IMG/VR virus record: IMGVR_UViG_2909288124_000006
DNA: 34,666 nucleotides
Direction: 5' to 3' (one strand)
DNA from: a virus
Taxonomy: Duplodnaviria > Heunggongvirae > Uroviricota > Caudoviricetes
Every line of letters begins with the position of its first letter. Within the stretch, counting starts at the first letter, position 1. The notes under the pieces are model-generated. The model was not told the DNA's origin and did no database searches. It worked only from the letters and a program-made list of their open reading frames with translations. The position numbers and the translations under genes were made by a program. This document shows, piece after piece, positions 520 to 25,477 of the stretch.

Positions 520-930
520 CATGTCTGAGAGATAGGGTGCCACTTCAGCCAACCTTAGCAACCGATTGACGGGGGATTGCTCCCCCGTCGCGGTTTCCTT
601 ACTGCTTACACTGTAAGAACGCCGCAAACTCCGCTCCCCAGAAGCTCATCCGTATTTCACACAGCGAACCGTGCAGCATCCAGATGATGAGGATTACCGT
701 CACGCAGAACGTGATGGCCGTAAGCGATTTTTGCGACATGGCGCTTGCTCCTTTGTTGGAGAGGCGCTAACCTATCACTTGCTTAAGGTAGATATGTTAG
801 GGCCTCGGTTAAACAGAAATGTTTTCCGGGGCCTTTCCACATCTGGCCTTCGGGTATTCCCTCCGACCATCAGCCGAAAGGCACCCGCGCGTAATCTATC
901 GCTTTTTTGTTACTCCGGCAATTCTGCCTG

Positions 931-1191
931 TTAATTCTGAGGTAAAGGCAAACTCATCTGATTGTTTCCCCTGTGTGAAGCTGGCAGATCATGCCACGGG
1001 ATACCTTCTGAAGAGTGAACGCCGGAGGCGTGTTTCGATGTGAATTTATGGAAAGCTTCCAGTGTTGAGAAGCATACGCCGCATTCCAGGTTGTTACACT
1101 GGTAATACTTTTGCCGCACGGTGTTTGAATCATTTTCCGGACGACTGGTGCGGATACGGGCAGATGCGCCACAAAGCGGACAACGGAACAT
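931..1191 (-). CDS. ogr: Ogr/Delta-type zinc-finger late transcription activator
   Basis: MFRCPLCG...Cys4 pattern typical of P2 Ogr; strong SD (AAGGGAGG) upstream of ATG at 1191. Confidence 0.85.
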   Translation of the reverse strand: MFRCPLCGASARIRTSRPENDSNTVRQKYYQCNNLECGVCFSTLEAFHKFTSKHASGVHSSEGIPWHDLPASHRGNNQMSLPLPQN

Positions 1192-1233
1192 AGCGACCTC
1201 CCTTAACGTGGTGCTGCCGCTATTCTAAGTTGC

Positions 1234-2334
1234 TCACTCTGTTTCCGCTATCCATTCCGGGATTTTTGCCTCAAGCTCAAGCTGCGTGGTAAAGCCGCTG
1301 TTATCAATGGTGTGCTCGGCTTTTGCAATGATCCAGTCCTGATTATCAATCTCGCTTTTAAATCCTGTTACCGTACCATGCATTTCGGGGTAGAGTTCTG
1401 CACGTCCACGCGCCAGCGTGATGGAGAATGATGCGGCTCCGCGTTGTAGTTGCTGCCACTTTGCCGCCGCTGCGCGTCTTGCTGCCTGTTCGTTCTGATA
1501 GGTCTTGCGTAACACAAACACATTGCCTTCCGCGCCTTCCATATAATCACCTTCACGGCTGCTGCTTTTCTCTTTTTTCGGTTTGCGGCGTTTCACGCTG
1601 ACTTTTTTCTTTTTCCCGTAATTAAGATCAAGCCAGTAAGCGCGTACCCCCGTATACGCTTCGCGGTCAGCAATGCGGAACTGATGGCGATCGCCGCTGC
1701 TGCGTGTAATGGCGAACGAGGGCAACGGCTGGCCCTGTGCGTTCACGCCACCACCTGGCATGATGAATAACAGATTGCCGCTTTTTACCGTGGTGATTGC
1801 GCCCAGCATTTCCGCCATGCGCGTAAGGAAGGACATGTCGCTTTCTTCGGTCTGGTCGGCGTGGTCGATTTCGATATCCATCAGCATTTCGCTGATTTGC
1901 GGTTTCAGACCATACCGATGAGCGATGGCGGATACCACACGCTCAACGGTCACATCATGCCAGGACACCTCGCGTTTAACGTTAAATTCATCCCGAAAAT
2001 CTGCGCTTCTGGCTGAAACAGTCAGCCTGTCCGGCGGTCCTTCGTGAGCGATTTCATCAACAATGTAAGTGCCTTTTTCTGTCAGCGGTTCCCCTTTCCA
2101 GCCAATGAGAACCGTCAGACGCGCGCCCCGTGGCGGTAGCTGCAACTGGCCATCGGCATCATCCAGCGTGATGGTGAGCTGGTCCGCCTCAAATCCCCGG
2201 TTGTCGGTCAGTGACAGGCTCATCAGGCGTTCTGCCACGCCGGACAGCGTTTTACCCTCGGCGAGAATATCAAAATCCGGCATTTTCACGGGGTCTGTGC
2301 CCTGACTGAGCAATTGCATGGTGGTGTCGGTCAT
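1234..2334 (-). CDS. D: Tail protein D (late control gene D family)
   Basis: Phage_GPD-like sequence; start set at internal ATG 2334 (MTDTTMQLL) with SD GGGAGGGAAG; the ORF-track N-terminal extension to 2466 was not used. Confidence 0.85.
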   Translation of the reverse strand: MTDTTMQLLSQGTDPVKMPDFDILAEGKTLSGVAERLMSLSLTDNRGFEADQLTITLDDADGQLQLPPRGARLTVLIGWKGEPLTEKGTYIVDEIAHEGPPDRLTVSARSADFRDEFNVKREVSWHDVTVERVVSAIAHRYGLKPQISEMLMDIEIDHADQTEESDMSFLTRMAEMLGAITTVKSGNLLFIMPGGGVNAQGQPLPSFAITRSSGDRHQFRIADREAYTGVRAYWLDLNYGKKKKVSVKRRKPKKEKSSSREGDYMEGAEGNVFVLRKTYQNEQAARRAAAAKWQQLQRGAASFSITLARGRAELYPEMHGTVTGFKSEIDNQDWIIAKAEHTIDNSGFTTQLELEAKIPEWIAETE

Positions 2335-2491
2335 CTCTTCCCTCCCTGTGCGGCATGGTCGCATGTGCGTGCGGAGGGGGTTACTGCTTTTTGTTGTCGC
2401 CGTGGCGGGAGAATAGCGCAGGGGTGAGATTACGCGCGTGGTGGGTGATGATTGTTGCTGAATCATTTAACGGATACAAGGGGCTGAAGTT

Positions 2492-3676
2492 ATGAGTGAA
2501 ACTCGTTTTCATGGTGCCCGTGTTACGGAAAATACCGACCTGGTAACAGCGATTAACGATGTTGATTCCAGCGTTATCGGTATCGTGGCAACGGCGGATG
2601 ATGCGGACGCGAAGCTGTTCCCGCTGAACAAGCCCACACTGCTGACCCGCGTCAATGACGTGCTGGGAAAATGCGGGACAACGGGGACGCTTTATCGTGC
2701 GCTTAAGGCCATCGCAGACCAGGTGAGCACAAAGGTGATCGTCGTTCGCGTGGCTGAACACAAAGAAGAAGACGGAAAGACGCAGGATCAACTGGTTATC
2801 GGCGGTTCTGAGGATGACGGCAGCTATACGGGGATGTATGCGCTGCTTGTTGCAGAGCAGGATGAAAGCATCGGATACCGTCCGCGTATTCTGGCAGCGC
2901 CGGAGCTGGACACGGAGGCTGTAACAAAATCCCTGTGCGTGATTGCGGGTAAACTGCGCGCGTTTGTGTATGCCTCATGTCATGGCTGTAACACGATGGC
3001 TGAGGCAATTACCTACCGCCAGAAATTCAACGAACGTGAGGTGATGCTCTTATGGCCGGACTTCATCGCCTACAACCCGAAAAGTGGCAAAAACGAAACG
3101 TTCCCCGCGCCTGCCTATGCGTGCGGCCTTCGTGCGTACATTGACCATGAGCAGGGATGGCACAAATCACTGTCCAACGTTCCGGTTAAAAATGTGCTGG
3201 GGATGTCGAGGCATGTGTTCTGGTCGTTGCAGGCCGAAGACAGCGATGCCAACAGCCTCAACAACAAAGAAATCACGACCATTATTCGTCGCAACGGGTT
3301 CCGCTTCTGGGGCAACCGCACACCGGAAACGAACGCCTACATCTTTGAGGTGTATACCCGAACCGCACAGGTGCTGGCTGATTCAATTGCGGAAGCGCAG
3401 TTTGAAACCATCGACAGTCCACTGACGCCTGCGAACGTGAAGGATGTTATCAGCGCCATCAGGGCAAAACTGGATTCGCTGGTTACTGCCGGGAAACTGA
3501 TTGGCGCGGAGTGCTGGTATGACGTGGTGGATAACGGCACCACGGATTTACGTCAGGGGCGTGTGCGTATTCGCTACAAATATACGCCCGTTCCCCCGCT
3601 GGAAGACATGGAGCTTTACCAGACGTTTACTGATGAATTCTTTGGTCCCGCATTTGCGGTGCTGGGAGGTGCCTGA
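2492..3676 (+). CDS. FI: Contractile tail sheath protein FI
   Basis: 394 aa, strong resemblance to P2 gpFI (e.g. LIRRNGFRFWGNRT, YTPVPPLE). Confidence 0.92.
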   Translation: MSETRFHGARVTENTDLVTAINDVDSSVIGIVATADDADAKLFPLNKPTLLTRVNDVLGKCGTTGTLYRALKAIADQVSTKVIVVRVAEHKEEDGKTQDQLVIGGSEDDGSYTGMYALLVAEQDESIGYRPRILAAPELDTEAVTKSLCVIAGKLRAFVYASCHGCNTMAEAITYRQKFNEREVMLLWPDFIAYNPKSGKNETFPAPAYACGLRAYIDHEQGWHKSLSNVPVKNVLGMSRHVFWSLQAEDSDANSLNNKEITTIIRRNGFRFWGNRTPETNAYIFEVYTRTAQVLADSIAEAQFETIDSPLTPANVKDVISAIRAKLDSLVTAGKLIGAECWYDVVDNGTTDLRQGRVRIRYKYTPVPPLEDMELYQTFTDEFFGPAFAVLGGA

Positions 3677-4188
3677 TGGCTGTACCAAAACATCTTCGCT
3701 TTTTTACGTTGTTTGTGGATGGTGAAAACGAAGTGGGTAAAGTGACATCCGTCACGCCGCCCAAACTGACGCGCAAAACCGACAGTTATCGTGGTGGTGG
3801 CATGATGGGGGCGGTAAGTATTGATCTCGGTCTGGACGACTCCGCGCTTGATGCGAGCTTTGTCATGGGGGGAGCTGTTCGTGCACTGTTCCTTAAGTAT
3901 GGCGGCACGATTGACGGCACGCTGCTGCGTTTTGCGGGTGAATATTACACCGATGCAGAAAGCGATCTGTATGAAATCGAGATGCGCGGGCGTGTGACGG
4001 AAATTGATATGGGGGAGGCCAAACAGGGCGAAGCCACATCACACACATACGCTGTCAAAAACACCTACTACAAGCTGAGTGTTAACGATCGCCCGCTGTG
4101 GGAAATCGACCTGTTGAACCACATCTACCGGAAGGACGGCAAGGACATTGTGCCTGACCGCATTCGCTCCGCGCTTGGGCTTGGCTGA
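3676..4188 (+). CDS. FII: Tail tube protein FII
   Basis: 170 aa, resembles P2 gpFII; start overlaps FI stop. Confidence 0.9.
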   Translation: MAVPKHLRFFTLFVDGENEVGKVTSVTPPKLTRKTDSYRGGGMMGAVSIDLGLDDSALDASFVMGGAVRALFLKYGGTIDGTLLRFAGEYYTDAESDLYEIEMRGRVTEIDMGEAKQGEATSHTYAVKNTYYKLSVNDRPLWEIDLLNHIYRKDGKDIVPDRIRSALGLG

Positions 4189-4243
4189 TAAGTAATATGC
4201 AGGCGACGCAGTGCGTCGCCTCTGACTGAAAAGGAGACAACTG

Positions 4244-4618
4244 ATGAAAGACATCGATACTGAAACCCGGAATAACACCGTAGCGGATGATGTGACGGCA
4301 GGTGAGGATATGGCTGTCGAACGTGGTGTAAAACTTTCCCGGCCAATTGAGCGTGGTGCCGAAAAAATCACATATGTGGAAATCACCGGGGCTATTGAGC
4401 AGGCGGGATCCCTGCGTGGTCTGTCGCTGTCTGATGTGCTGAATCTGAAAGCGGATACCATGTTCACGCTGTTGCCTCGCGTGACCTCGCCACGACTGGA
4501 TGAAGTGATGATTAAAAAAATGTCGTCACGCGATTTTATTCAGTTGTGCGCTGTGGCTGTAAATTTTATGAGCGAGCCAGACTCTGGCGCGAAGAGCGTG
4601 CAGGAGACGGCAGCGTAA
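4244..4618 (+). CDS. E: Tail assembly chaperone E (zero-frame product)
   Basis: Position between tube and tape measure; A7 run at 4514-4520 in frame; the -1 frame is open from 4516 to 4782. Confidence 0.7.
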   Translation: MKDIDTETRNNTVADDVTAGEDMAVERGVKLSRPIERGAEKITYVEITGAIEQAGSLRGLSLSDVLNLKADTMFTLLPRVTSPRLDEVMIKKMSSRDFIQLCAVAVNFMSEPDSGAKSVQETAA

Positions 4619-4782
4619 TCACCCTGGTGTGCTTTGAGCACATCGAAGATCTGGTGGCGGATATTGCCGCCATTTTTAACTGGTCGCCCGCCGAAATCTT
4701 CATGATGACGCCCGGCGAAGTGGTTAGCTGGCGTGAGCGGGCGGCACTTCGCAGCGGGAATGCAGATAATGAAGACTCTTGA
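4244..4782 (+). CDS. E': Tail assembly chaperone E+E' (predicted programmed -1 frameshift product, shift near 4514-4520)
   Basis: Conserved E/E' arrangement upstream of tape measure; -1 frame ORF 4516-4782 overlaps T start; the frameshift itself is an inference. Confidence 0.5.
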
Positions 4783-7576
4783 CATCCGGGTCGCTTTCAG
4801 CGCCGTTGACAGGCTGACCCGGCCTGCCGAAAACGCCCGCCGCCTGATGGGGCAGTTTGGTGACTCCATCCAGCGAACGCAGGGGGCGATCAAAAATCTC
4901 GAGCGTCAGGCGCGTTCATTTGAGCGCGCCCGCGACGCTGTCAGTAAAGCGGATGCGGGTATCGTGAAAGCACGACGCCAGCTTAACGCCCTTAATCAGT
5001 TACAACGCACGGGTACAGTGCTCAGCGAAAAACAACAAAAGCTGATGCAGCAGTTAAGCACCCGGCTTGAACGCCTGAATGAATCGCGCACACGGGAAAT
5101 TCAGAAAATGCGGGAGCTTGGCGGAGAGCTGAAACGCCACGGCATTTCCCTGACAGGCAGCGATAACACCATCCAGCAGGCCATCAGACGCACCGAACAG
5201 TACAACAACCAGCTTGAACGCGAACGGCAGGCGCTTGCGCGTGTAACGCGGGCGCGTGAGCGGTATTCGCGCGCGCAGGAAACAGCGGGAAAACTGAAAA
5301 CAGGTGGTGCGCTGGCAATTGGTGCGGCAGCGGCGGGCGGCTATGCTGCCGGGCGTTTTTTGCAGCCTGCGATCGGGTTCGGGAAAGAGATGTCCCGCGT
5401 TCAGGCACTGACGCGAATCGACAAAAACAGCCCGCAGTTTAAGGCGCTGCGTGAGCAGGCGTTAAAACTTGGCTCTGAAACGCAGTTCACCGCAGGCGAT
5501 GCCGCCAGTGGGCAGGCATTTCTTGCAATGGCTGGCTTCACACCACAGGCCATTCAGGCTGCGCTCCCTGGCGTACTGAGCATGGCAACGGCTGGCGGTA
5601 TGGACCTCGGTGAGACGGCGGATATTGGCTCAAATATTCTGACGCAGTTCGGTCTTTCTGCTGACCAGATGGACCGGGTCGGCGACACACTCACCGCAGC
5701 GTTTACCCGTACCAACACTGACCTTCGCGCACTGGGTGAAACCATGAAATATGCAGGTCCGGTGGCGGGTAAGCTGGGAATATCGCTGGAGCAGGCCGCA
5801 GCGATGGCGGGCGTGCTGGCGAATATGGGTATCAGGGGGAGTGATGCTGGTACGGCAATGCGTGCCAGCCTGGCTCGTCTGGCATCACCGCCAAAGGCGG
5901 CAGCAGAGGCGCTGAAAGAGCTTGGCGTGTCTGTCTCGGATGCCGGGGGCAAAATGCGCCCGATGGAGGATGTGCTGGCTGACCTTTATAAAGCTACCCG
6001 CAAATACGGGGAAGTTGACCGGGTATCGTTCTTTAAGGACATTGCCGGAGAAGAGGCTTTCACATCATTTATGGCCCTCGTTGATGCGGCAGGTGACGGC
6101 TCCTTACCCAAACTGAGAAAAGAACTTGAAGGCGCGCGCGGTGAGGCTGAACGCACGGCAAAGGTTATGGCCAACAACCTTGACGGCGATTTGAAATCAC
6201 TCAGCAGTGCATGGGAAGGGTTGCGCATCCGCATTGCAGATCTGATTGACGGTCCGCTGCGTTCTGTCACGCAGTGGCTCACGCGTGTGGTATCAAAGGT
6301 GACGGCGCTGGCGCAGGCCCATCCCGCACTGACGCGCCAGCTACTGATTGCAGGCGGTGCACTGCTGGCAATGACTGCAACGGTTGGCTCGTTGTCGCTG
6401 GCTATTGGTGTGCTTGCTGGCCCGCTGGCAAAACTGCGTCTTGGTTTTTCCCTCCTGACCGGATCAATGAATGCTGTCAGGGTTCTGCCAGCACTATGGG
6501 GAATGGTGACGGGTTCCGTTTCTTTACTGGGAGGCGCTATCGGGGCGTTGTTCAGTCCGGTTGGTCTTATCGTGGCTGCGCTTGCCGGAGCTGCCGTTCT
6601 TATCTGGAAATACTGGGATCCCATCAGGGCATTTTTTGCCGGGGTGTTCAGCGGGATTATGGAAAGGCTGACCCCGTTGCGCGAAACCTTTGAACGGTTT
6701 GGTCCTGTTTTTGACGCAATCGGAAGCGGGATCAGCCAGGTGTTTAACTGGTTTAAATCGCTGCTGTCACCGATGGAGTCCAGCAAGGAAACGCTGGATA
6801 AATGTACCAGTGCTGGCGAGATATTCGGTAACGTTCTTGGTGGCGCGCTACAGCTTGTTCTGACGCCTGCAAAAATGTTGCTGGATACGCTGGCGTGGAT
6901 ACTTGAAAAACTCGGTGTGCTTCCGGATGAAGCGGAAAGGGCGAGAAAGAAAATCGAAGACGCACAGCGTGCGGCCATTCTTCAGGACAAGGTTGCTCTG
7001 TTTCAGGGAGACATTGCGAAAATCAATCCGCCGAAGTCTGCGGAAAATGGCAATGGCACCGGAGGCGATAAACCCAAAGACAACAAACCGCTCACAGACA
7101 GCAATACCGGCACGCTACGCAGACTCAGCAAAATTGCTGATAACACAGGTAAGCTGGTTGATGAGACAAAAAAACGTATTGGCCCCGGCGATATTGTCTT
7201 TAAGAACCTGCCCCGCGCACTTGCTGTTCGTGGGGAGTGGCAGGAGCGGAAGATTGCGCAGGTCAGTAAGCCTGCCCCCGCAATTAATATCACATCCGTA
7301 GTCCCGGCTCCGCTGCCTCCGGCGCTGGTCCCTGTTGTTGCGGCCAGCTCCCGCCCGGTGGCGGAGGCCATACGATCGCCAGTGGCATCAGTTCCTGCAA
7401 CTTCCCGTAACCGGGAGCCTGCTGTCTCCGGATTTGGTGGTGAAATTCATGTTCATCTGCATAACGTTGTTACGCAGAATCCCCGCGAACTGGCGAAACT
7501 GGTCGGTGAAATGGTCAGGGCAGAAATGGAACGGCGCGCCCGTGCCGGGCGTGGCAGTTTTTACGATAAAGATTGA
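4760..7576 (+). CDS. T: Tail tape measure protein T
   Basis: About 940-aa ORF with coiled-coil N-terminus and Gly/Ala-rich hydrophobic middle typical of tape measure; start uncertain (GTG 4733, ATG 4760 or ATG 4769). Confidence 0.85.
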   Translation: MQIMKTLDIRVAFSAVDRLTRPAENARRLMGQFGDSIQRTQGAIKNLERQARSFERARDAVSKADAGIVKARRQLNALNQLQRTGTVLSEKQQKLMQQLSTRLERLNESRTREIQKMRELGGELKRHGISLTGSDNTIQQAIRRTEQYNNQLERERQALARVTRARERYSRAQETAGKLKTGGALAIGAAAAGGYAAGRFLQPAIGFGKEMSRVQALTRIDKNSPQFKALREQALKLGSETQFTAGDAASGQAFLAMAGFTPQAIQAALPGVLSMATAGGMDLGETADIGSNILTQFGLSADQMDRVGDTLTAAFTRTNTDLRALGETMKYAGPVAGKLGISLEQAAAMAGVLANMGIRGSDAGTAMRASLARLASPPKAAAEALKELGVSVSDAGGKMRPMEDVLADLYKATRKYGEVDRVSFFKDIAGEEAFTSFMALVDAAGDGSLPKLRKELEGARGEAERTAKVMANNLDGDLKSLSSAWEGLRIRIADLIDGPLRSVTQWLTRVVSKVTALAQAHPALTRQLLIAGGALLAMTATVGSLSLAIGVLAGPLAKLRLGFSLLTGSMNAVRVLPALWGMVTGSVSLLGGAIGALFSPVGLIVAALAGAAVLIWKYWDPIRAFFAGVFSGIMERLTPLRETFERFGPVFDAIGSGISQVFNWFKSLLSPMESSKETLDKCTSAGEIFGNVLGGALQLVLTPAKMLLDTLAWILEKLGVLPDEAERARKKIEDAQRAAILQDKVALFQGDIAKINPPKSAENGNGTGGDKPKDNKPLTDSNTGTLRRLSKIADNTGKLVDETKKRIGPGDIVFKNLPRALAVRGEWQERKIAQVSKPAPAINITSVVPAPLPPALVPVVAASSRPVAEAIRSPVASVPATSRNREPAVSGFGGEIHVHLHNVVTQNPRELAKLVGEMVRAEMERRARAGRGSFYDKD

Positions 7577-7582
7577 GGAGTC

Positions 7583-8077
7583 ATGGCCATGATGATGATC
7601 TACGGCATGTTTGTTTTTGAGCTGCGCACGCTGCCGCATCAGCAGTTACAGCAAAACAAAAGCTGGCGGCATGTGAAAAATGAACGCGTTAACCGTTCAG
7701 CAAGCTGGCAGTATATCGGTGCAGGTGATGATCGCATCGTTCTTTCTGGTGTGCTTTATCCTGAAATTACAGGTGGCGAAGTGTCGCTGTCGCTGCTGAC
7801 CACGCAGGCGTATACAGGACGACCCTGGCCTCTGATTGATGGCGTCGGGCAGATTTACGGCATGTATGTCCTGACCGGAACGAATACGACCCGTTCCGAG
7901 TTTGATCGCTACGGTAAGGCGAAAAAGATAGAATTTTCACTGACCCTTGAACGCTGTGATGAGGATTTGCGGGAGCGCCTGCAATCCTCATCGTTCAGTG
8001 ATATGCTGTCCGGCTTCAAAGATAAGGTCACATCATCCCTTAACAGCGCGGCCAGCTCCGTTAAAGGGCTGTTTTGA
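7583..8077 (+). CDS. U: Tail protein U
   Basis: 164 aa resembling P2 gpU; SD GAGGAG upstream. Confidence 0.85.
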   Translation: MAMMMIYGMFVFELRTLPHQQLQQNKSWRHVKNERVNRSASWQYIGAGDDRIVLSGVLYPEITGGEVSLSLLTTQAYTGRPWPLIDGVGQIYGMYVLTGTNTTRSEFDRYGKAKKIEFSLTLERCDEDLRERLQSSSFSDMLSGFKDKVTSSLNSAASSVKGLF

Positions 8078-8103
8078 TTAACGCAAAACCGCTAATGGTC
8101 AGA
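8078..8103. terminator. Hairpin between convergent U and invertase genes (aaaaccgctaat...attagcggtttt), likely bidirectional terminator
   Basis: Perfect 12-bp inverted repeat flanked by A-run and T-run. Confidence 0.5.
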
Positions 8104-8703
8104 TTAGCGGTTTTCATTTTCCTGAGTCTGCCTGGTTGTTTCTTCAGCCTGTATATCGCCTACAGGGTGATAACGATAAATCGTCGATATGCCGATGTCG
8201 TAAATGATCGCCAGTTGTTTCCTGTCATGACCGTTTTTAATCAGCCTCGCTATTTGCTCGTGTTGTTCTTTTGTCAACTTCGGGCGACGTCCGCCAATGC
8301 GTCCTTGTTCGCGTGCTGCTGCCAGCCCGGCCAGTGTACGCTCTACAATTAATTCACGTTCCATTTCGGCTAAAGCCCCCATGACGTGAAAAAAGAAACG
8401 CCCCATGGGTGTTGATGTGTCAATGCTGTCCGTCAGACTACGGAAATTAACACCTTTTTCCCGCAATTCCTCAATAAGCGTGATCAGGTGTTTCATACTT
8501 CTGCCCAGTCTGTCCAGCTTCCAGACAACCAGCGTATCTCCTTCTGATAGCGTTCTGAGCAGTTTTTTCAATCCCGGTCTGGCTGATTTCGTTCCGCTGA
8601 TTTTATCTTCAAAAATCAGTTCACATCCTGCGCAGTTCAGTGCATTGCGTTGTAAATCCGTGTTCTGGTCATTTGTTGACACACGAATATAGCCAATTTG
8701 CAT
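8104..8703 (-). CDS. Serine DNA invertase, Hin/Gin/Cin/Pin family
   Basis: MQIGYIRVSTNDQ...GRFFFHVMGALAEMERELIVERT; start set at ATG 8703 with SD AGAGGA; ORF-track upstream extension rejected. Confidence 0.9.
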   Translation of the reverse strand: MQIGYIRVSTNDQNTDLQRNALNCAGCELIFEDKISGTKSARPGLKKLLRTLSEGDTLVVWKLDRLGRSMKHLITLIEELREKGVNFRSLTDSIDTSTPMGRFFFHVMGALAEMERELIVERTLAGLAAAREQGRIGGRRPKLTKEQHEQIARLIKNGHDRKQLAIIYDIGISTIYRYHPVGDIQAEETTRQTQENENR

Positions 8704-8757
8704 AAAAAACATCCTCTTTGTTTCGTGAAAAATACATAGTTGGTATAGGTAGGGATA

Positions 8758-8789
8758 AAAACGAAAACGTTGGTTTAGGAGAAGCGGCG
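8758..8789. other. gix/hix-like recombination site 1 (core ttggtttaggagaa at 8770-8783)
   Basis: 13/14 inverted match to 10655-10668; resembles Gin/Hin crossover site consensus (from memory). Confidence 0.55.
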
Positions 8790-9128
8790 AAAAGGGATGT
8801 GGGCACAGGAGATAATCAGATACCGGATATGGGAGCATTCGCTTCTGGTTCGGGATGGTTCAGGCTACCAGGTGGATATATTGTTCAGTTTGGCACTTTT
8901 GCAGGAAACACGACCCGCTTTATCAGTGGACACTTCCCTATACCATTCCCTAATCAGCCGATGGTTTCAGTCAGTGTTATGTCTGATGCCGTTCAGTCAG
9001 ACCCGTCGAATCCTGCCCCGCAGGTTTTGTCTGTAAATTTTGAACATATCAGTAATTCAGCGTGGCGTGTGGCAACCAGTGATATCTCACAGCAATACAG
9101 ATTCAGTTATATTTCGATAGGACGGTAG
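8784..9128 (+). other. Promoterless alternative tail-fibre C-terminal cassette (H' variable part), currently in the silent orientation
   Basis: Open frame through gix site encoding ...NVGLGE-AAKRDVG...; H encodes ...YLGLGE-GAPAIG... at the other site; followed by its own tfa gene. Confidence 0.55.
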
Positions 9129-9130
9129 AA

Positions 9131-9571
9131 ATGCAGAAATATATTTTCAGTGCCGATAAAAATGCGTTTTTCCCTGTGGAGCTTAAAATCGCTTATCAGG
9201 AATCCGGCGAATGGCCCGATGATGGAATCGAAATTGACGACACTGTTGCTGCCGAATTTATGAAGGAAGCACCAGAAGGAAAATACAGAGGTGTCATCGA
9301 CGGAATGCCTGCATGGATTGATATTCCACCGCCAACTCATGAGGAACAAATTGCCGCAGCCGAACTGAAAAAGCAGCAATTGATTAATCAGGTCAACGAA
9401 TACATAAACAGTAAGCAATGGCCTGGTAAAGCGGCGATTGGTCGCCTGAAAGGTGAGGAACTGGTGCAATATAATTTGTGGCTGGATTATCTGGACGCAC
9501 TGGAACTGGTCGATACTTCCGGTGCGCCAGATATTGAATGGCCTACGCCTCCGGCAGTTCAGGCCAGATGA
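9131..9571 (+). CDS. Tail fibre assembly protein (alternative, partner of the silent cassette)
   Basis: 146 aa Tfa-like, C-terminal ...IEWPTPPA motif; convergent and overlapping with G. Confidence 0.8.
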   Translation: MQKYIFSADKNAFFPVELKIAYQESGEWPDDGIEIDDTVAAEFMKEAPEGKYRGVIDGMPAWIDIPPPTHEEQIAAAELKKQQLINQVNEYINSKQWPGKAAIGRLKGEELVQYNLWLDYLDALELVDTSGAPDIEWPTPPAVQAR

Positions 9572-10136
9572 CATCCGGTGCGGTGCTGGTATCTGTTGCC
9601 GTCACCGCGTCAATATAATCCAGCACAGCGTTAAGTCGGGTGTTTTCTGGCTGCGTCAGCTTCCGCCCGGCCTGTAATTTCAGTTGAATCAGACTGATGG
9701 AAGCCATTGCAGCATCAATCAGCGACTGGCGCTGTGCTTCTGCCGCTTCTACTGCGGCGCTATGCTGTGCCTCGGTATCCGTCACCCATTTCTCACCATC
9801 CCATTTATCGTATGGCGTTAACGGTGAAAGCGTGACATAACCGTCTTTGATGGCACCGATATAATCCACTGTAACAGCTGCGCCATTTTCAGTTGAGTAA
9901 ACGGTCTCATTGCGATGGTCTTCTTCATGGCTCCATCCCTTACCCGTAAATACAGCCACTTTTCCCGGAATGTTTTCGCTCGGGTCAATACCAGTGGAAC
10001 AGGCGGGCATACTTACGCCAGTATTAATATATTCATCAGACCAGCCGGTATATTCATACGTTACTGCATTATAATAAAAACAACGCATATCGCCCGGCAC
10101 TGTAGCCAGCCCATTTTCATCAAAAACAGGTTTCAT
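9543..10136 (-). CDS. G: Tail fibre assembly protein G (expressed orientation)
   Basis: 197 aa Tfa-like; directly downstream of H. Confidence 0.85.
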   Translation of the reverse strand: MKPVFDENGLATVPGDMRCFYYNAVTYEYTGWSDEYINTGVSMPACSTGIDPSENIPGKVAVFTGKGWSHEEDHRNETVYSTENGAAVTVDYIGAIKDGYVTLSPLTPYDKWDGEKWVTDTEAQHSAAVEAAEAQRQSLIDAAMASISLIQLKLQAGRKLTQPENTRLNAVLDYIDAVTATDTSTAPDVIWPELPEA

Positions 10137-11800
10137 TATTTAGCCCTCACCAGAAAGTTAAATGCAATATTTCGTGGACGGGTTTCTGTACCTACATTTC
10201 CACTAATTTCACCATAACGTTTAACACTACGAGAGCTAAGAGCTCGTAGTGAGGAAGGCACCTTAAGACCGGGTTCGTCCGTTTTAACTATTCCCCCGTC
10301 ACCATATGTAGCCAGTATTCCTGGGTTTACTCCTTCCCGTGCACTTCCTGCGGCAAGCCCGTCCCCCGTCCACAATTCCATATTGTGTGCATGATCCATA
10401 ATTGTGTGTGATTGCCCTGAAAGTAGGGTACGTCCGACATCAATCCCGCGCCCATCATCCCAGATACGAATGAAATCACCGCGTGCGTCAGGTAATGCCA
10501 GCGCCGGAAACACTTTCGCCAGCACAGGGTAATCAGTGGCAGAGAATTTCGCGCCGTTGAACTTCAAAAACACCATACCGGACCAGCTATCGATTACGGT
10601 ATCTGGCATTGCAGCGGACGGCCAGAAGAACGGAACGCCAATAGCTGGAGCTCCTTCTCCCAAACCAAGGTAATCAAGAACTCCCTGAGTGCTGGTTTTA
10701 CCAAGAATGGCACGTCCAACACTTGTCAACGCGGTTAACGCGGCACGATCTGCCCCTGTAAAATATGGGAGTTTATCTGCTGATGTAGCAAGCTCCGCCA
10801 GCGCCGTCAGGGTGGCATCCTTCGGTTGCTTACCCGCAAGCGCGTTAGTCATGGTGGTCGCAAAATTCGGGTCATTGCCCAGCGCCGCAGCCAGTTCGTT
10901 CAGCGTGTTCAGTGCATCAGGTGACGAATCTACAAGTGCGGCAATCGCGGCCATAACGAAAGCTGTGCTTGCGATCTGGGTATTATTAGTCCCCTGTGGC
11001 GCTGTTGGTGTTGTTGGCGTTCCGGTCAGTGCCGGGCTGTTTAATGGTGCTTTCTTGTTCGTTTCATCCATTACCACCTTAACAGCTTTTGGTGTCGCTG
11101 CCAGCGTTTCAGACGTGCTGTTCGTGGCGCTACTGAGCTGAACAATCCCTTTTTGTGTTGTGGTGGCGTTCTGGGCAGTATATTTCCCGTTAGCCAGGTC
11201 ATATGCAGCCTTAACCGCTTTCGGTGTTGCGGCCAGTGTTTCTGATTCACTGTTAATTGCACTGCTTAACTGAGTAAAACCTTTTACGGTCAGCGAGGCG
11301 TCCGGGTGACGTCGTGACTGTTCGTGCTCTGAGATTTTATCATCCACATATTTGCGGGTTGCCAGAACCACAGACGGGTCGATTTTCAGCGTGATGGCTT
11401 CGGTGTTCGTGACAACCAGAATCATGCGGATAGTCTGGGTGCGTCCACTGCCTTCCTGCAACTGCGGTTTGTACGTTTCCGGGCAGTTTGCCACCGCAAT
11501 AAGTACGCCTTCATCATCATAAAGACCAATCTCACGGATCCAGAATCCTCCCTCGTTTTCAGGGATGATTTGTTCCGCAATAATCTGGCTCTGATTGTTA
11601 GGGTCAACACTCAGAAGATTCAGCGGTGCAATGCGTTTCTGGTTAATCAGTTTTGTTTGTGCAGGGTCTGGTGTTGGTAACACACCATTTGCATCACCAA
11701 CGGCCATTTGCGTCAGATTCAGCTTACTGCCGAGCATCGTCGCGTTAGCCAGTCGTGCCGCGCCCTGATTAGTCAGAATGGCGTAGTATTTCACTGTCAT
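10136..11800 (-). CDS. H: Tail fibre protein H
   Basis: 554 aa; conserved N-terminus MTVKYYAILTNQGAARLANA, repeat motifs SETLAATPKAVK; gix-like site inside the gene at 10655-10668. Confidence 0.9.
   Translation of the reverse strand: MTVKYYAILTNQGAARLANATMLGSKLNLTQMAVGDANGVLPTPDPAQTKLINQKRIAPLNLLSVDPNNQSQIIAEQIIPENEGGFWIREIGLYDDEGVLIAVANCPETYKPQLQEGSGRTQTIRMILVVTNTEAITLKIDPSVVLATRKYVDDKISEHEQSRRHPDASLTVKGFTQLSSAINSESETLAATPKAVKAAYDLANGKYTAQNATTTQKGIVQLSSATNSTSETLAATPKAVKVVMDETNKKAPLNSPALTGTPTTPTAPQGTNNTQIASTAFVMAAIAALVDSSPDALNTLNELAAALGNDPNFATTMTNALAGKQPKDATLTALAELATSADKLPYFTGADRAALTALTSVGRAILGKTSTQGVLDYLGLGEGAPAIGVPFFWPSAAMPDTVIDSWSGMVFLKFNGAKFSATDYPVLAKVFPALALPDARGDFIRIWDDGRGIDVGRTLLSGQSHTIMDHAHNMELWTGDGLAAGSAREGVNPGILATYGDGGIVKTDEPGLKVPSSLRALSSRSVKRYGEISGNVGTETRPRNIAFNFLVRAK
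10649..10680. other. gix/hix-like recombination site 2 inside H (core ttctcccaaaccaa at 10655-10668)
   Basis: Inverted copy of site 1 core. Confidence 0.55.
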
Positions 11801-20129: not shown

Positions 20130-20283
20130 AGTTTTTGCCCCTCTGACTGGTTCTTCAGTCATGATGGCAAAGCGTAACAGGCTGATACAAAGGGCTTTTG
20201 TTGTAAGAAAACGGCCAGAACAGGGGGTTAAGGAGAACGGTTTCGCGCGCGGGTAATCTTCCTGTAATTACTCAGGGGGAGCA

Positions 20284-24201: not shown

Positions 24202-24513
24202 TTACTCAGGAAATAACGCCCGGATATTCCCAGCCATCTGGCTGGTTATCTTAGCCACTGGTGCAGACTGTGCTTCAAACTTTTTTGAGCTGATTTGTGT
24301 CACAGGTAACATCTCATCATCAGCCCATGCGGCCAGTCGGTAAGCCTCTGCCGGATTCGTCTTCAGAAGTGCCAGCCCGGCCAGAAAAGCCACGCGTTGG
24401 CCGCTTTTGCGGGCTTCTGGTGTAAGGCTGTCCAGCCAGGCGCATGCTTCTCCTTCGTTCTTGACGGCAGCTGGCTTCAGATAGAAACTTATTCTTCTGG
24501 TTGGTGTCGTCAT
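24202..24513 (-). CDS. parR: ParR-like centromere-binding adaptor (type II partition)
   Basis: 103 aa directly downstream of parM; ...VAFLAGLALL... resembles R1 ParR region. Confidence 0.7.
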   Translation of the reverse strand: MTTPTRRISFYLKPAAVKNEGEACAWLDSLTPEARKSGQRVAFLAGLALLKTNPAEAYRLAAWADDEMLPVTQISSKKFEAQSAPVAKITSQMAGNIRALFPE

Positions 24514-24517
24514 TGGT

Positions 24518-25477
24518 TTACTCCTTGTTCATTGCGTACAGCCCATTAACCAGAGCAAATTGTGGCCCCCCGTCCGCGATGAAAGTCGCATTAACTCCGC
24601 AGGCTTCGCGGATAGCGGGTGCCACAATCTCCGCCCCGCCACCGACAACCATCACCCGCCCGTAACCCGAAAAAACCGCCAGCGCGCGGATCACGCGTTG
24701 TTTCAGTGTTTCTTCCTTTTCACGAATAACCGCCATCAGGCTGGCGTAATGCGCGTCATTGTGGATGTGCTGGCGCAGCCAGGCTTCATCATGGCGATGT
24801 TCGATAATGGTATTGGCGATGTGGTGACTGGTGCGCATACCGTTAGTGGCCATCACCGACAGTACGGCATCGGCCATAAGAGAAACGCCTACGTGTGGAT
24901 CGCAAAACAGCTGGCTGATACCTGCCAGTTGCCCCTGAACCTTTGCCACATCCAGCGTGGTTCCGCCCAAATCCACAATCAGCAGGGATTCAAACGGACT
25001 CATGTCAGCCAGAGCCTTAAAGCCAGCCGGAATGGATTCAGGCATAACCCGCACGTTACAGATAGTGAATGCTTCGCCGTTCTGGTACTCCACCGGGCGC
25101 ATAACGTTCGCTTTTTTGCGGTTGATGTTGGCCATGTCCGGCTGTGCGTTTGTGTCGAAATACTCGCTCAGTGGCAGGGTGACAACCACATCCACCTCCT
25201 GTGGCGTGATGCCTGATTTGACCAGTGCGTGATGAATGGCAATGACATTCACATCGCTGTACTGGTATTGCGTGTCGGTCGTCTGGACAAAGCGATCGCT
25301 GACCGGATCAAAACCGTAGCGCACGCCATCAAGCATGTAGTTCGCGGGCTGCGTGCCACTGAACGGCGCAGACCATTCCGACTTGAAACTGTTCGGGCTG
25401 ATGGCGTTGCGGCGTTCGCCGTTCTCAGTCCATGCCAGCTTGATGTTGGTGGAGCCGTCGTCGATACAAATTTTCAT
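24518..25477 (-). CDS. parM: ParM/StbA actin-like segregation ATPase
   Basis: 319 aa; IDDGSTNIKL, YSDVNVIAIHHAL, VMPESIPAG, DLGGTTLD motifs matching plasmid R1 ParM as remembered. Confidence 0.9.
   Translation of the reverse strand: MKICIDDGSTNIKLAWTENGERRNAISPNSFKSEWSAPFSGTQPANYMLDGVRYGFDPVSDRFVQTTDTQYQYSDVNVIAIHHALVKSGITPQEVDVVVTLPLSEYFDTNAQPDMANINRKKANVMRPVEYQNGEAFTICNVRVMPESIPAGFKALADMSPFESLLIVDLGGTTLDVAKVQGQLAGISQLFCDPHVGVSLMADAVLSVMATNGMRTSHHIANTIIEHRHDEAWLRQHIHNDAHYASLMAVIREKEETLKQRVIRALAVFSGYGRVMVVGGGAEIVAPAIREACGVNATFIADGGPQFALVNGLYAMNKE

Follow-up and report, generated by a model that had tools for sequence, protein, structure and literature searches.

Divergent D/FI tail genes and a predicted bidirectional late promoter in P88-like prophages

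In phages P2 (Peduovirus) and Fels-2 (Felsduovirus), the genes FI, FII, E/E', T, U, D and ogr all run in the same direction, and the F operon ends with D. Late promoters of the P2 family show a dyad of the TGT-N12-ACA type, whose centre precedes the transcription start by about 55 nt, a -10 element and a poor -35. In pF of P2, the -10 is centred at +48 and the mapped start is at +57.5. Furthermore, the P2 record gives pO and pP one common feature, annotated as "activator binding site; pO, pP promoters". Their mapped starts are on either side of it, at a distance of 55-56 nt, and the pP and pO -10 hexamers, as read in this analysis, are located 46 nt to each side of the dyad. A different gene order is found in the genus Xuanwuvirus (Peduoviridae), to which P88 belongs: ogr and D are transcribed leftward, FI, FII, E, T and U rightward, and the invertase gene, the fibre segment and H again leftward. 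P88 and PhiSM are viable temperate phages that form plaques (PMC5285337, PMC6456863), which indicates that the inverted layout works, and the papers describing them do not mention the inversion.

The window, that is, the whole stretch of 34,666 nucleotides analysed here (IMG/VR record IMGVR_UViG_2909288124_000006), shows the following genes from ogr to H:

931-1191, minus strand: ogr, late-gene activator of 86 aa (Pfam Ogr_Delta PF04606, 52.3 bits against a cutoff of 26.3), whose translation contains a C-X2-C...C-X4-C zinc finger
1234-2334, minus strand: D, tail/baseplate hub protein of 366 aa (Pfam Phage_GPD)
2335-2491: divergent D/FI spacer of 157 bp, proposed bidirectional Ogr-dependent late promoter (pF rightward, 'pD' leftward)
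2492-3676, plus strand: FI, tail sheath (Pfam sheath domains)
3676-4188, plus strand: FII, tail tube (Pfam Phage_tube, E = 2e-45)
4244-4618, plus strand: E, identified from its position and its similarity to the E of relatives, including P2 and Fels-2 (31-48% identity)
4244-4782, plus strand: E+E', probable -1 frameshift product
4733-7576, plus strand: open reading frame of T, tape measure (Pfam PhageMin_Tail), probable start at 4769
7583-8077, plus strand: U, tail protein (Pfam Phage_P2_GpU), final gene in the inverted block
8104-8703, minus strand: serine DNA invertase of 199 aa (Pfam Resolvase and HTH_7)
9543-10136, minus strand: G (Pfam Caudo_TAP)
10136-11800, minus strand: H (Pfam tail-collar fibre domains)

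These gene identities and strands, as well as the 157-bp spacer between D and FI, agree with the original prediction, made from the letters of the window. E gave no match in the Pfam search. The E/E' frameshift is probable according to frame analysis, with a slippery A_AAT_TTT at 4561-4567 and a -1 frame open to 4782, and the start of T was placed at 4769 after the PhiSM annotation. The D protein is 52-53% identical to D of P2 and Fels-2 and equal in length to P88 gp51; its ATG at 2334 is preceded by a strong Shine-Dalgarno sequence (GGGAGGG), and its stop codon is separated from ogr by 42 nt. P2 and Fels-2 share FI, FII, E/E', T, U, D and ogr with the window, with amino acid identities of 32-54%. 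However, their records show FI-FII-E-T-U-D-ogr co-directional, whereas in the window FI-U is inverted and D-ogr constitutes a separate divergent unit, so that the block is indeed flipped in place in relation to P2, 186 and Fels-2, as had been proposed with reference to P2 and 186. In Fels-2, an invertase gene lies directly upstream of FI.

The closest relatives are Escherichia phage P88, Citrobacter phage PhiSM and Xuanwuvirus P884B11, which have the same gene order and strands as the window from ogr to the baseplate, share with it the divergent D/FI and the convergent U/invertase pairs, and also share the accessory genes hok, ParM and a gpA-type replication protein. Annotated strands in the P88 and PhiSM records agree with those of the window, and according to these records and a tblastn map the window matches the Xuanwuvirus gene order described above. 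Identity with P88 is 94.7% over 90% of positions 900-9600 and 96.3% over 89% of positions 9667-34666, which gives an overall similarity (identity x coverage) of about 85%, based on two segments searched separately and not on a VIRIDIC-type calculation. The ICTV genus criterion is a nucleotide similarity (identity x coverage) of at least 70% across the genome, and the window lies above this value for Xuanwuvirus. Gene E and the tail-fibre/invertible-segment region (about 8.7-10.8 kb) are other alleles than those of P88 (the E of the window shares 73% identity with that of P88 and 98% with that of PhiSM), and small differences from the Xuanwuvirus relatives P88, PhiSM and P884B11 are found at the left end. 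The window is an ordinary P88-like prophage.

A recent inversion of 5.7 kb specific to this prophage, or an assembly error, would also give a block inverted in relation to P2 and Fels-2, and the GC skew changes sign at both block junctions, as expected from the strand switch. However, the ogr-to-invertase region is collinear, with 92-96% identity, in P88, P884B11, PhiSM, 500465-2, 520873, 503458, PhiR44_2 and Chuche, and this collinearity in at least eight Xuanwuvirus phages argues against a private rearrangement. At a coverage of at least 80%, the D|FI junction was found contiguous in 1354 of 5426 complete E. coli genomes (about 25%) and the U|invertase junction in 620 of the 5426; among 1372 E. 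coli records, 1356 showed an intact D|FI junction. Species representatives from GTDB were surveyed at 80 loci mapped by tblastn. All 29 loci with a D at least 61% identical to that of the window, from about 15 genera of Enterobacterales, showed the inverted layout, whereas canonical order, also that of P2 and Fels-2, was found in 42 of 42 loci with a readable U-D or FI-U-D layout among the 51 with a D at most 54% identical. Misassembly is ruled out by the same junction in phage isolates, E. coli genomes and species representatives, and the suggestion that the rearrangement is private to this element does not survive the identical layout of so many related genomes; an event of this prophage alone is extremely improbable. 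The divergent D/FI layout is the standard one in the very common P88-like prophage lineage, which roughly a quarter of the complete E. coli genomes contain.

Neighbour-joining trees of D, FI and U, midpoint-rooted and built on tblastn fragments without support values, each put inverted and canonical loci in separate, mutually exclusive clades. The single clade formed by the inverted loci in the three trees indicates a single ancient inversion. Furthermore, the spacers of the inverted loci are almost wholly diverged in sequence but keep their architecture, which requires a long shared history and again speaks against a change confined to this prophage. We consider it likely that the FI-U inversion is an old lineage trait which arose once and became fixed, and that D-ogr would have been kept active through a shared Ogr dyad. 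The inversion of FI-FII-E/E'-T-U would have taken place in the ancestor of a deep P2-family tail-module lineage, to which the P88-like phages (genus Xuanwuvirus) belong, as do related prophages throughout Enterobacterales.

At the other end of the block, two elements were located:

8085-8114: bidirectional intrinsic-terminator hairpin, AAAACCGCTAAT-ggtcag-ATTAGCGGTTTT, between the convergent U and invertase genes
8758-8783: hix-like 26-nt crossover site, which belongs to the tail-fibre segment

The hairpin has a 12-bp stem and a 6-nt loop and overlaps the invertase stop codon (8104-8106); its folding energy is -15.7 kcal/mol (z = -3.0) on one strand and -16.9 kcal/mol (z = -4.3) on the other. 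A hairpin had been predicted here and is present, but the 26 bp assigned to it (8078-8103) are the intergenic gap. As a bidirectional terminator, it would separate the convergent U and invertase genes.

Serine invertases of the Gin/Hin/Cin type invert DNA between hix/gix-type sites. Since the invertase gene abuts the block and one site of this type is found at 8758-8783, a phase switch was also considered, in which this enzyme would flip the tail block reversibly and in a programmed manner. It is very unlikely, because the best matches to the 26-nt site at the two FI-U junctions show 13/26 mismatches each, which is chance level, and a scan for the crossover-site core found none in the D/FI spacer or the U/invertase gap. 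The FI-U block has neither flanking crossover sites nor two orientations: a single orientation was seen in all of the clade loci and phages, 32 in total. In addition, the inverted layout is kept without an invertase beside U in Kosakonia (loci L008-L011) and E. coli strain 147, and no inverted match longer than 9 nt was found between the junction regions, a length reached by 4% of shuffles. A second candidate crossover site, at about 10316-10329, is also in the tail-fibre segment, and the positions of both sites indicate that the invertase acts on this segment and not on the FI-U block. It had originally been noted that the D/FI spacer contains no gix-like site and that flipping by the invertase is not supported; both points were borne out, the first of them at both junctions. 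Inverted repeats at the block ends were considered as a recombination substrate; none was found among the 25 longest pairs in the window, and the 9-nt match was rejected as evidence.

With D and ogr uncoupled from the F operon, a new promoter for D in the 157-bp spacer had been called for, and this reasoning is upheld for both genes. The spacer shows four elements:

2395-2412, centre 2403.5: Ogr/B/Delta-type activator dyad, TGT-N12-AGA, conserved and with the geometry of annotated P2 sites
2355-2360, minus strand: predicted -10 of the D-ogr promoter, GACCAT, 46 nt from the dyad centre
2447-2452, plus strand: predicted -10 of pF, GATGAT, 46 nt from the dyad centre
2360-2373: alternating CG/CA-rich block, GCATGTGCGTGCG, between the dyad and the D-side -10, (CG)n in relatives

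The dyad is imperfect, with one mismatch in relation to the TGT-N12-ACA type; a window-wide search for exact TGT-N12-ACA gave no match in the D/FI or P/O spacers, and the site was recognised only through alignment of relatives. Each of 30 clade spacers contains a single central T[GC]T-N12-A[GC]A. Transcription starts are predicted at about 2347-2349 leftward and about 2459 for pF. In the lineages inspected, the D start codon is 70-82 nt from the dyad centre, leaving a leader of 15-27 nt; for D of the window, a leader of only about 14 nt is predicted, starting at the Shine-Dalgarno sequence. The pF architecture of P2 and Fels-2 is that of the window, with the dyad about 80-88 nt upstream of FI and the -10 at +46 to +48.

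In an ungapped alignment anchored on the dyad, minus-strand nAnnAT at -46 was found in 12 of 15 inverted lineages versus 1 of 33 canonical loci (Fisher p = 8e-8), although this is a low-information motif and kinship among lineages makes the test overstate independence. Plus-strand nAnnAT at +46 was present in all 15 inverted lineages and in 29 of the 33 canonical loci. A generic scan, uninformative for activator-dependent promoters, found no sigma-70 consensus promoter in the D/FI spacer, as expected of activator-dependent late promoters. As in P2-family late transcription, the window encodes an Ogr/Delta activator, and the dyad is accompanied by -10-like hexamers without a sigma-70 consensus and by predicted starts.

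For comparison, the P/O spacer of the window was read in the same way:

20202-20219: shared P/O dyad, comparison element, TGT-N12-AGA, with a -10-like TAATCT at 20254-20259 (+46)
20161-20166, minus strand: leftward P/O -10-like hexamer CATCAT, at -47 from the dyad

The D/FI and P/O spacers of the window have TTTTGTTGT-N12-AGAA in common. Both resemble pP/pO of P2 in having a central dyad with -10s about 46 nt to either side; however, P2 has this architecture annotated at P/O only, whereas the window has a second, predicted copy at D/FI. The pV promoter was not located in the window by the dyad and -10 rule. A CG-rich block comparable to that on the D side is found upstream of the P-side -10 (about 20241-20253) and also in pP of P2. 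The conserved D-side block has no place in a model in which the dyad is shared.

One Ogr-type dyad with -10-like hexamers 46 nt to each side, as in P2 pP/pO, suggests that D-ogr is probably driven by a bidirectional late promoter. From this geometry and its conservation we infer promoter function and activation of D by Ogr. The inversion would have joined the start of D to the upstream flank of pF, the tail promoter, whose Ogr-binding site, being a dyad, could serve RNA polymerase on either side, as happens at pP/pO of P2. A mirror-image -10, located 46 nt from this dyad in the direction of D, would then have given a leftward promoter, and D-ogr would be a leftward two-gene late operon and FI-U a rightward one, with one activator site common to both.

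An alternative accepts the old lineage trait but places D-ogr under an Ogr-independent promoter or another signal, for example the CG-rich block, with the hexamer at -46 reflecting something else. The CG-rich block is conserved on the D side yet superfluous if the site is shared, the exact D-side hexamer is missing in three of the 15 inverted lineages, and ogr of P2 has its own promoter, while here a TAGAAT is located 26 nt upstream of ogr. We regard this alternative as unlikely, since the spacer lacks a sigma-70 consensus promoter and the hexamer stands at the exact mirror distance (46 nt) of the annotated P2 pP/pO pair and, with one exception in 33, not at the corresponding position in canonical phages. 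Furthermore, D encodes a structural protein of the tail, required late along with FI-U. On balance we favour, with some reserve, the reading that the inversion was tolerated because the pF dyad is symmetric, and that the mirror -10 made a second bidirectional promoter of the pP/pO type, with Ogr activating ogr itself.

A literature search on Xuanwuvirus, the FETUD operon, inversion in Peduoviridae and bidirectional Ogr promoters returned nothing relevant; earlier discussion in print is possible, and as far as the searchable literature shows the bidirectional D/FI promoter is undescribed. For annotators, a divergent D/FI layout is no sign of misassembly, and surveys of prophages and tailocins can use the pair as a diagnostic marker for this lineage of tail modules. 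The shared dyad offers a simple testable prediction for late transcription in the P2 family. The lineage illustrates how an essential gene, D, and an activator gene, ogr, may leave their operon by inversion and still be expressed on time, apparently by reusing the dyad symmetry of an activator site, a design already present in the phage family at pP/pO. If true, this would be a clean natural case of a genome rearrangement rescued through activator-site symmetry.

An ORF map and Pfam scans of the window bear out the gene calls of the original prediction for the tail region. FI, FII, T, U, the invertase, G and H were placed by the ORF map and Pfam scans, and E by the ORF map.

Features of the tail region of the window
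931-1191, minus: ogr (Pfam Ogr_Delta, 52 bits)
1234-2334, minus: D (Pfam Phage_GPD)
2492-3676, plus: FI
3676-4188, plus: FII
4244-4618, plus: E
about 4769-7576, plus: T
7583-8077, plus: U
8104-8703, minus: serine invertase
8758-10329: invertible tail-fibre segment, with a hix-like 26-mer (8758-8783) and a second candidate site inside H (about 10316-10329)
9543-10136, minus: G
10136-11800, minus: H

D and FI are divergent across a gap of 157 bp (2335-2491). U and the invertase converge on a hairpin with a 12-bp stem (8085-8114), with an A-run and a T-run on opposite sides and with folding energies on the two strands of -15.7 and -16.9 kcal/mol (z = -3.0 and -4.3). This hairpin overlaps the invertase stop codon; the 26-bp hairpin formerly placed at 8078-8103 is the U/invertase intergenic gap. 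The E frame carries the canonical -1 slippery heptamer A_AAT_TTT (4561-4567), about 50 nt before its stop codon, and the -1 frame is open to 4782 (region 4546-4782), which probably corresponds to an E+E' tail-chaperone frameshift.

The P2 and Fels-2 records both carry FI-FII-E-T-U-D-ogr on a single strand, and comparison of gene order confirms that FI-U is inverted in relation to P2. Since Fels-2 shows the one-strand order with an invertase directly upstream of FI, an in-place inversion of FI-U is exactly what sets the window apart from it.

When 900-9600 was compared with phage records by megablast, it gave single-piece collinear matches with 92-96% identity in P88, Xuanwuvirus P884B11, Citrobacter phage PhiSM, 500465-2, 520873, 503458, PhiR44_2 and Chuche, and the annotated strands in P88 and PhiSM are identical to those of the window. 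The remaining 25 kb shows 96.3% identity to P88 over 89%, and the window is an ordinary P88-like (Xuanwuvirus) prophage. The D/FI junction (2100-2750, at least 80% coverage) was found in 1354 of 5426 complete E. coli genomes, including O157:H7 strains, in which the junction can be reduced to a degraded remnant. The layout is therefore already present in reference phage genomes and a quarter of complete E. coli genomes, which by the refutation criterion of the original prediction refutes a rearrangement private to this element: as proposed, the block runs in the opposite direction to that of P2 and D requires a promoter of its own, but the element itself is not rearranged. The layout is functional, since both P88 and PhiSM produce plaques and establish lysogens (PMC5285337, PMC6456863). 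A literature search in which the key works were not covered found no paper discussing the inverted layout or the proposed D-side promoter.

The U/invertase junction was found in 620 complete E. coli genomes, while in many others similarity ends directly past the U stop codon (8082-8083); it is a module boundary able to hold other cargo, and seems to be a favoured place for cargo in the way that the Z/fun position is in P2. Strain 147 (locus L086, 9285-10050) has a serine O-acetyltransferase at this post-U position; in the same strain an IS30 truncates D and an IS3 element deleted structural genes.

A D-protein alignment scan, with one genome per GTDB species, returned 80 loci, onto which twelve tail and baseplate proteins of the window were mapped. 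The 29 loci whose D is at least 61% identical are all ordered J+ I+ H+ (G, invertase) U- T- E- FII- FI- D+ ogr+, and belong to Salmonella, Kluyvera, Kosakonia, Enterobacter, Klebsiella, Providencia, Xenorhabdus, Photorhabdus, Rouxiella, Dryocola, Hafnia, Citrobacter, Morganella, Pectobacterium and Yersinia. One further locus, labelled as the Firmicute Vagococcus sp. WN89Y (L005, NZ_JBQPOM010000071.1), with the whole E. coli-type layout and a D 98-99% identical to that of the window, is most likely assembly contamination or mislabelling. Among the 51 loci with D at most 54% identical, the 42 that were readable all have U (or FI through U) upstream of D and co-directional with it; the other nine, cut off or lacking a U match, were left out of the layout count. 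Neighbor-joining trees of D, FI and U each place inverted and canonical loci in exclusive clades; the baseplate J tree (loci L005-L084) mixes both types, with a minimum between-group distance of 0.10. The tail module is inherited as a mosaic unit of its own. One ancient inversion, in a tail-module lineage that was later shuffled among P2-family backbones, is the simplest interpretation; a single origin is well supported, although not formally proven because the trees are distance-based and midpoint-rooted, without support values. A Burkholderia P2-like phage table likewise lists D, U and T in one direction, which fits an ancestral canonical order.

Flipping of FI-U by the invertase was rejected, as both junctions show 13 of 26 mismatches to the 26-nt crossover site. 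One orientation is common to all relatives, and the layout is the same where no invertase adjoins. No meaningful inverted repeats bracket the block in a search of its ends; a 9-nt inverted match just inside them (TTTAACGGA at 2466-2474 and TCCGTTAAA at 8058-8066) is probably due to chance, since 4% of shuffles reach the same length. On its opposite strand, the invertible tail-fibre segment holds alternative versions of the H C-terminus (8718-9128, Gp53-like_C) and of a tail-fibre assembly gene (9131-9571).

Further genes were also observed in the window. A 46-aa Hok/Gef-family toxin ORF (599-739, minus; Pfam HOK_GEF) lies just past ogr and is presumably type I toxin-antitoxin cargo; its P88 equivalent is annotated as MokW-like host killing. 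A ParM actin-like segregation ATPase (24518-25477, minus) and a Plasmid_stab_B protein (24202-24513, minus) adjoin the gpA-type replication gene, and represent a plasmid-style partition pair within an integrating P2-like prophage. Two small cargo ORFs occupy the left edge: one (1-243) is DUF4177-like on a weak match that falls short of the Pfam cutoff, and the other (236-469) encodes a YidD-family membrane-insertion factor homologue.

An exact search for the Ogr/B/Delta-type activator dyad TGT-N12-ACA gave no match in the D/FI spacer. Nevertheless, aligned spacers of 29 relatives keep one central dyad each despite near-total sequence turnover, which in the window is TGT (2395-2397)-N12-AGA (2410-2412). 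Providencia spacers (L014, L020) have TCT-N12-AGA, where both half-sites are altered together and symmetry is retained. When 15 lineage representatives were aligned ungapped on the dyad centre, a plus-strand nAnnAT hexamer centred at +46 was present in all 15 (GATGAT in the window, 2447-2452), and a minus-strand copy at -46 in 12 (GACCAT, 2355-2360). Canonical loci aligned on their own pF (F operon promoter) dyad as a control (n=33) showed the FI-side hexamer in 29 and the opposite-side hexamer in only one; for the D-side hexamer, Fisher p = 8e-8, a value overstated by the relatedness of the lineages. In the lineages inspected, 70-82 nt separate the D start codon from the dyad centre, which always places the codon downstream of the transcription start predicted at about -55.

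In the P2 reference record, just one "activator binding site; pO, pP promoters" is annotated (3057-3087), with mapped starts at 3016 (P) and 3127 (O), 55-56 nt each side of this shared site; we read the -10 hexamers as lying 46 nt each side of the dyad centre. In P2 pF, the annotated start lies 57.5 nt and the -10 lies 48 nt from the dyad centre. The P/O spacer of the window has TTTTGTTGT-N12-AGAA (20202-20219), nearly equal in extended sequence to the D/FI spacer and with the same mixed TGT-N12-AGA form, as well as TAATCT at +46 and minus-strand CATCAT at -47. Dyad-like matches number 14 across the window, and -10 hexamers stand at suitable positions only in these two divergent late spacers. 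From this comparison, the D/FI spacer appears to be a second instance of the bidirectional late-promoter design known in the family. The bidirectional-promoter model does not account for an alternating CG-rich block that is conserved between the dyad and the -10 on the D side (GCATGTGCGTGCG at 2360-2373; forms such as ACGCGCGCGCGT in relatives). A block of this kind also stands immediately upstream of the P-side -10, both in the window (about 20241-20253) and in P2 pP (about 234-246 of locus L085), whereas the FI and O sides lack it.

The original prediction reasoned that D would need a promoter in the spacer. In the history proposed here, the inversion would have brought the D start up against the upstream face of pF; given the symmetry of the activator site, driving D-ogr from it would take no more than a -10 at the mirrored distance. 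Transcription of ogr from the proposed spacer promoter would keep late positive feedback, for which P2 relies on F-operon read-through; one terminator in the P2 record carries the label "for ogr transcript and F operon". The bidirectional-promoter reading would be a modest, testable addition.
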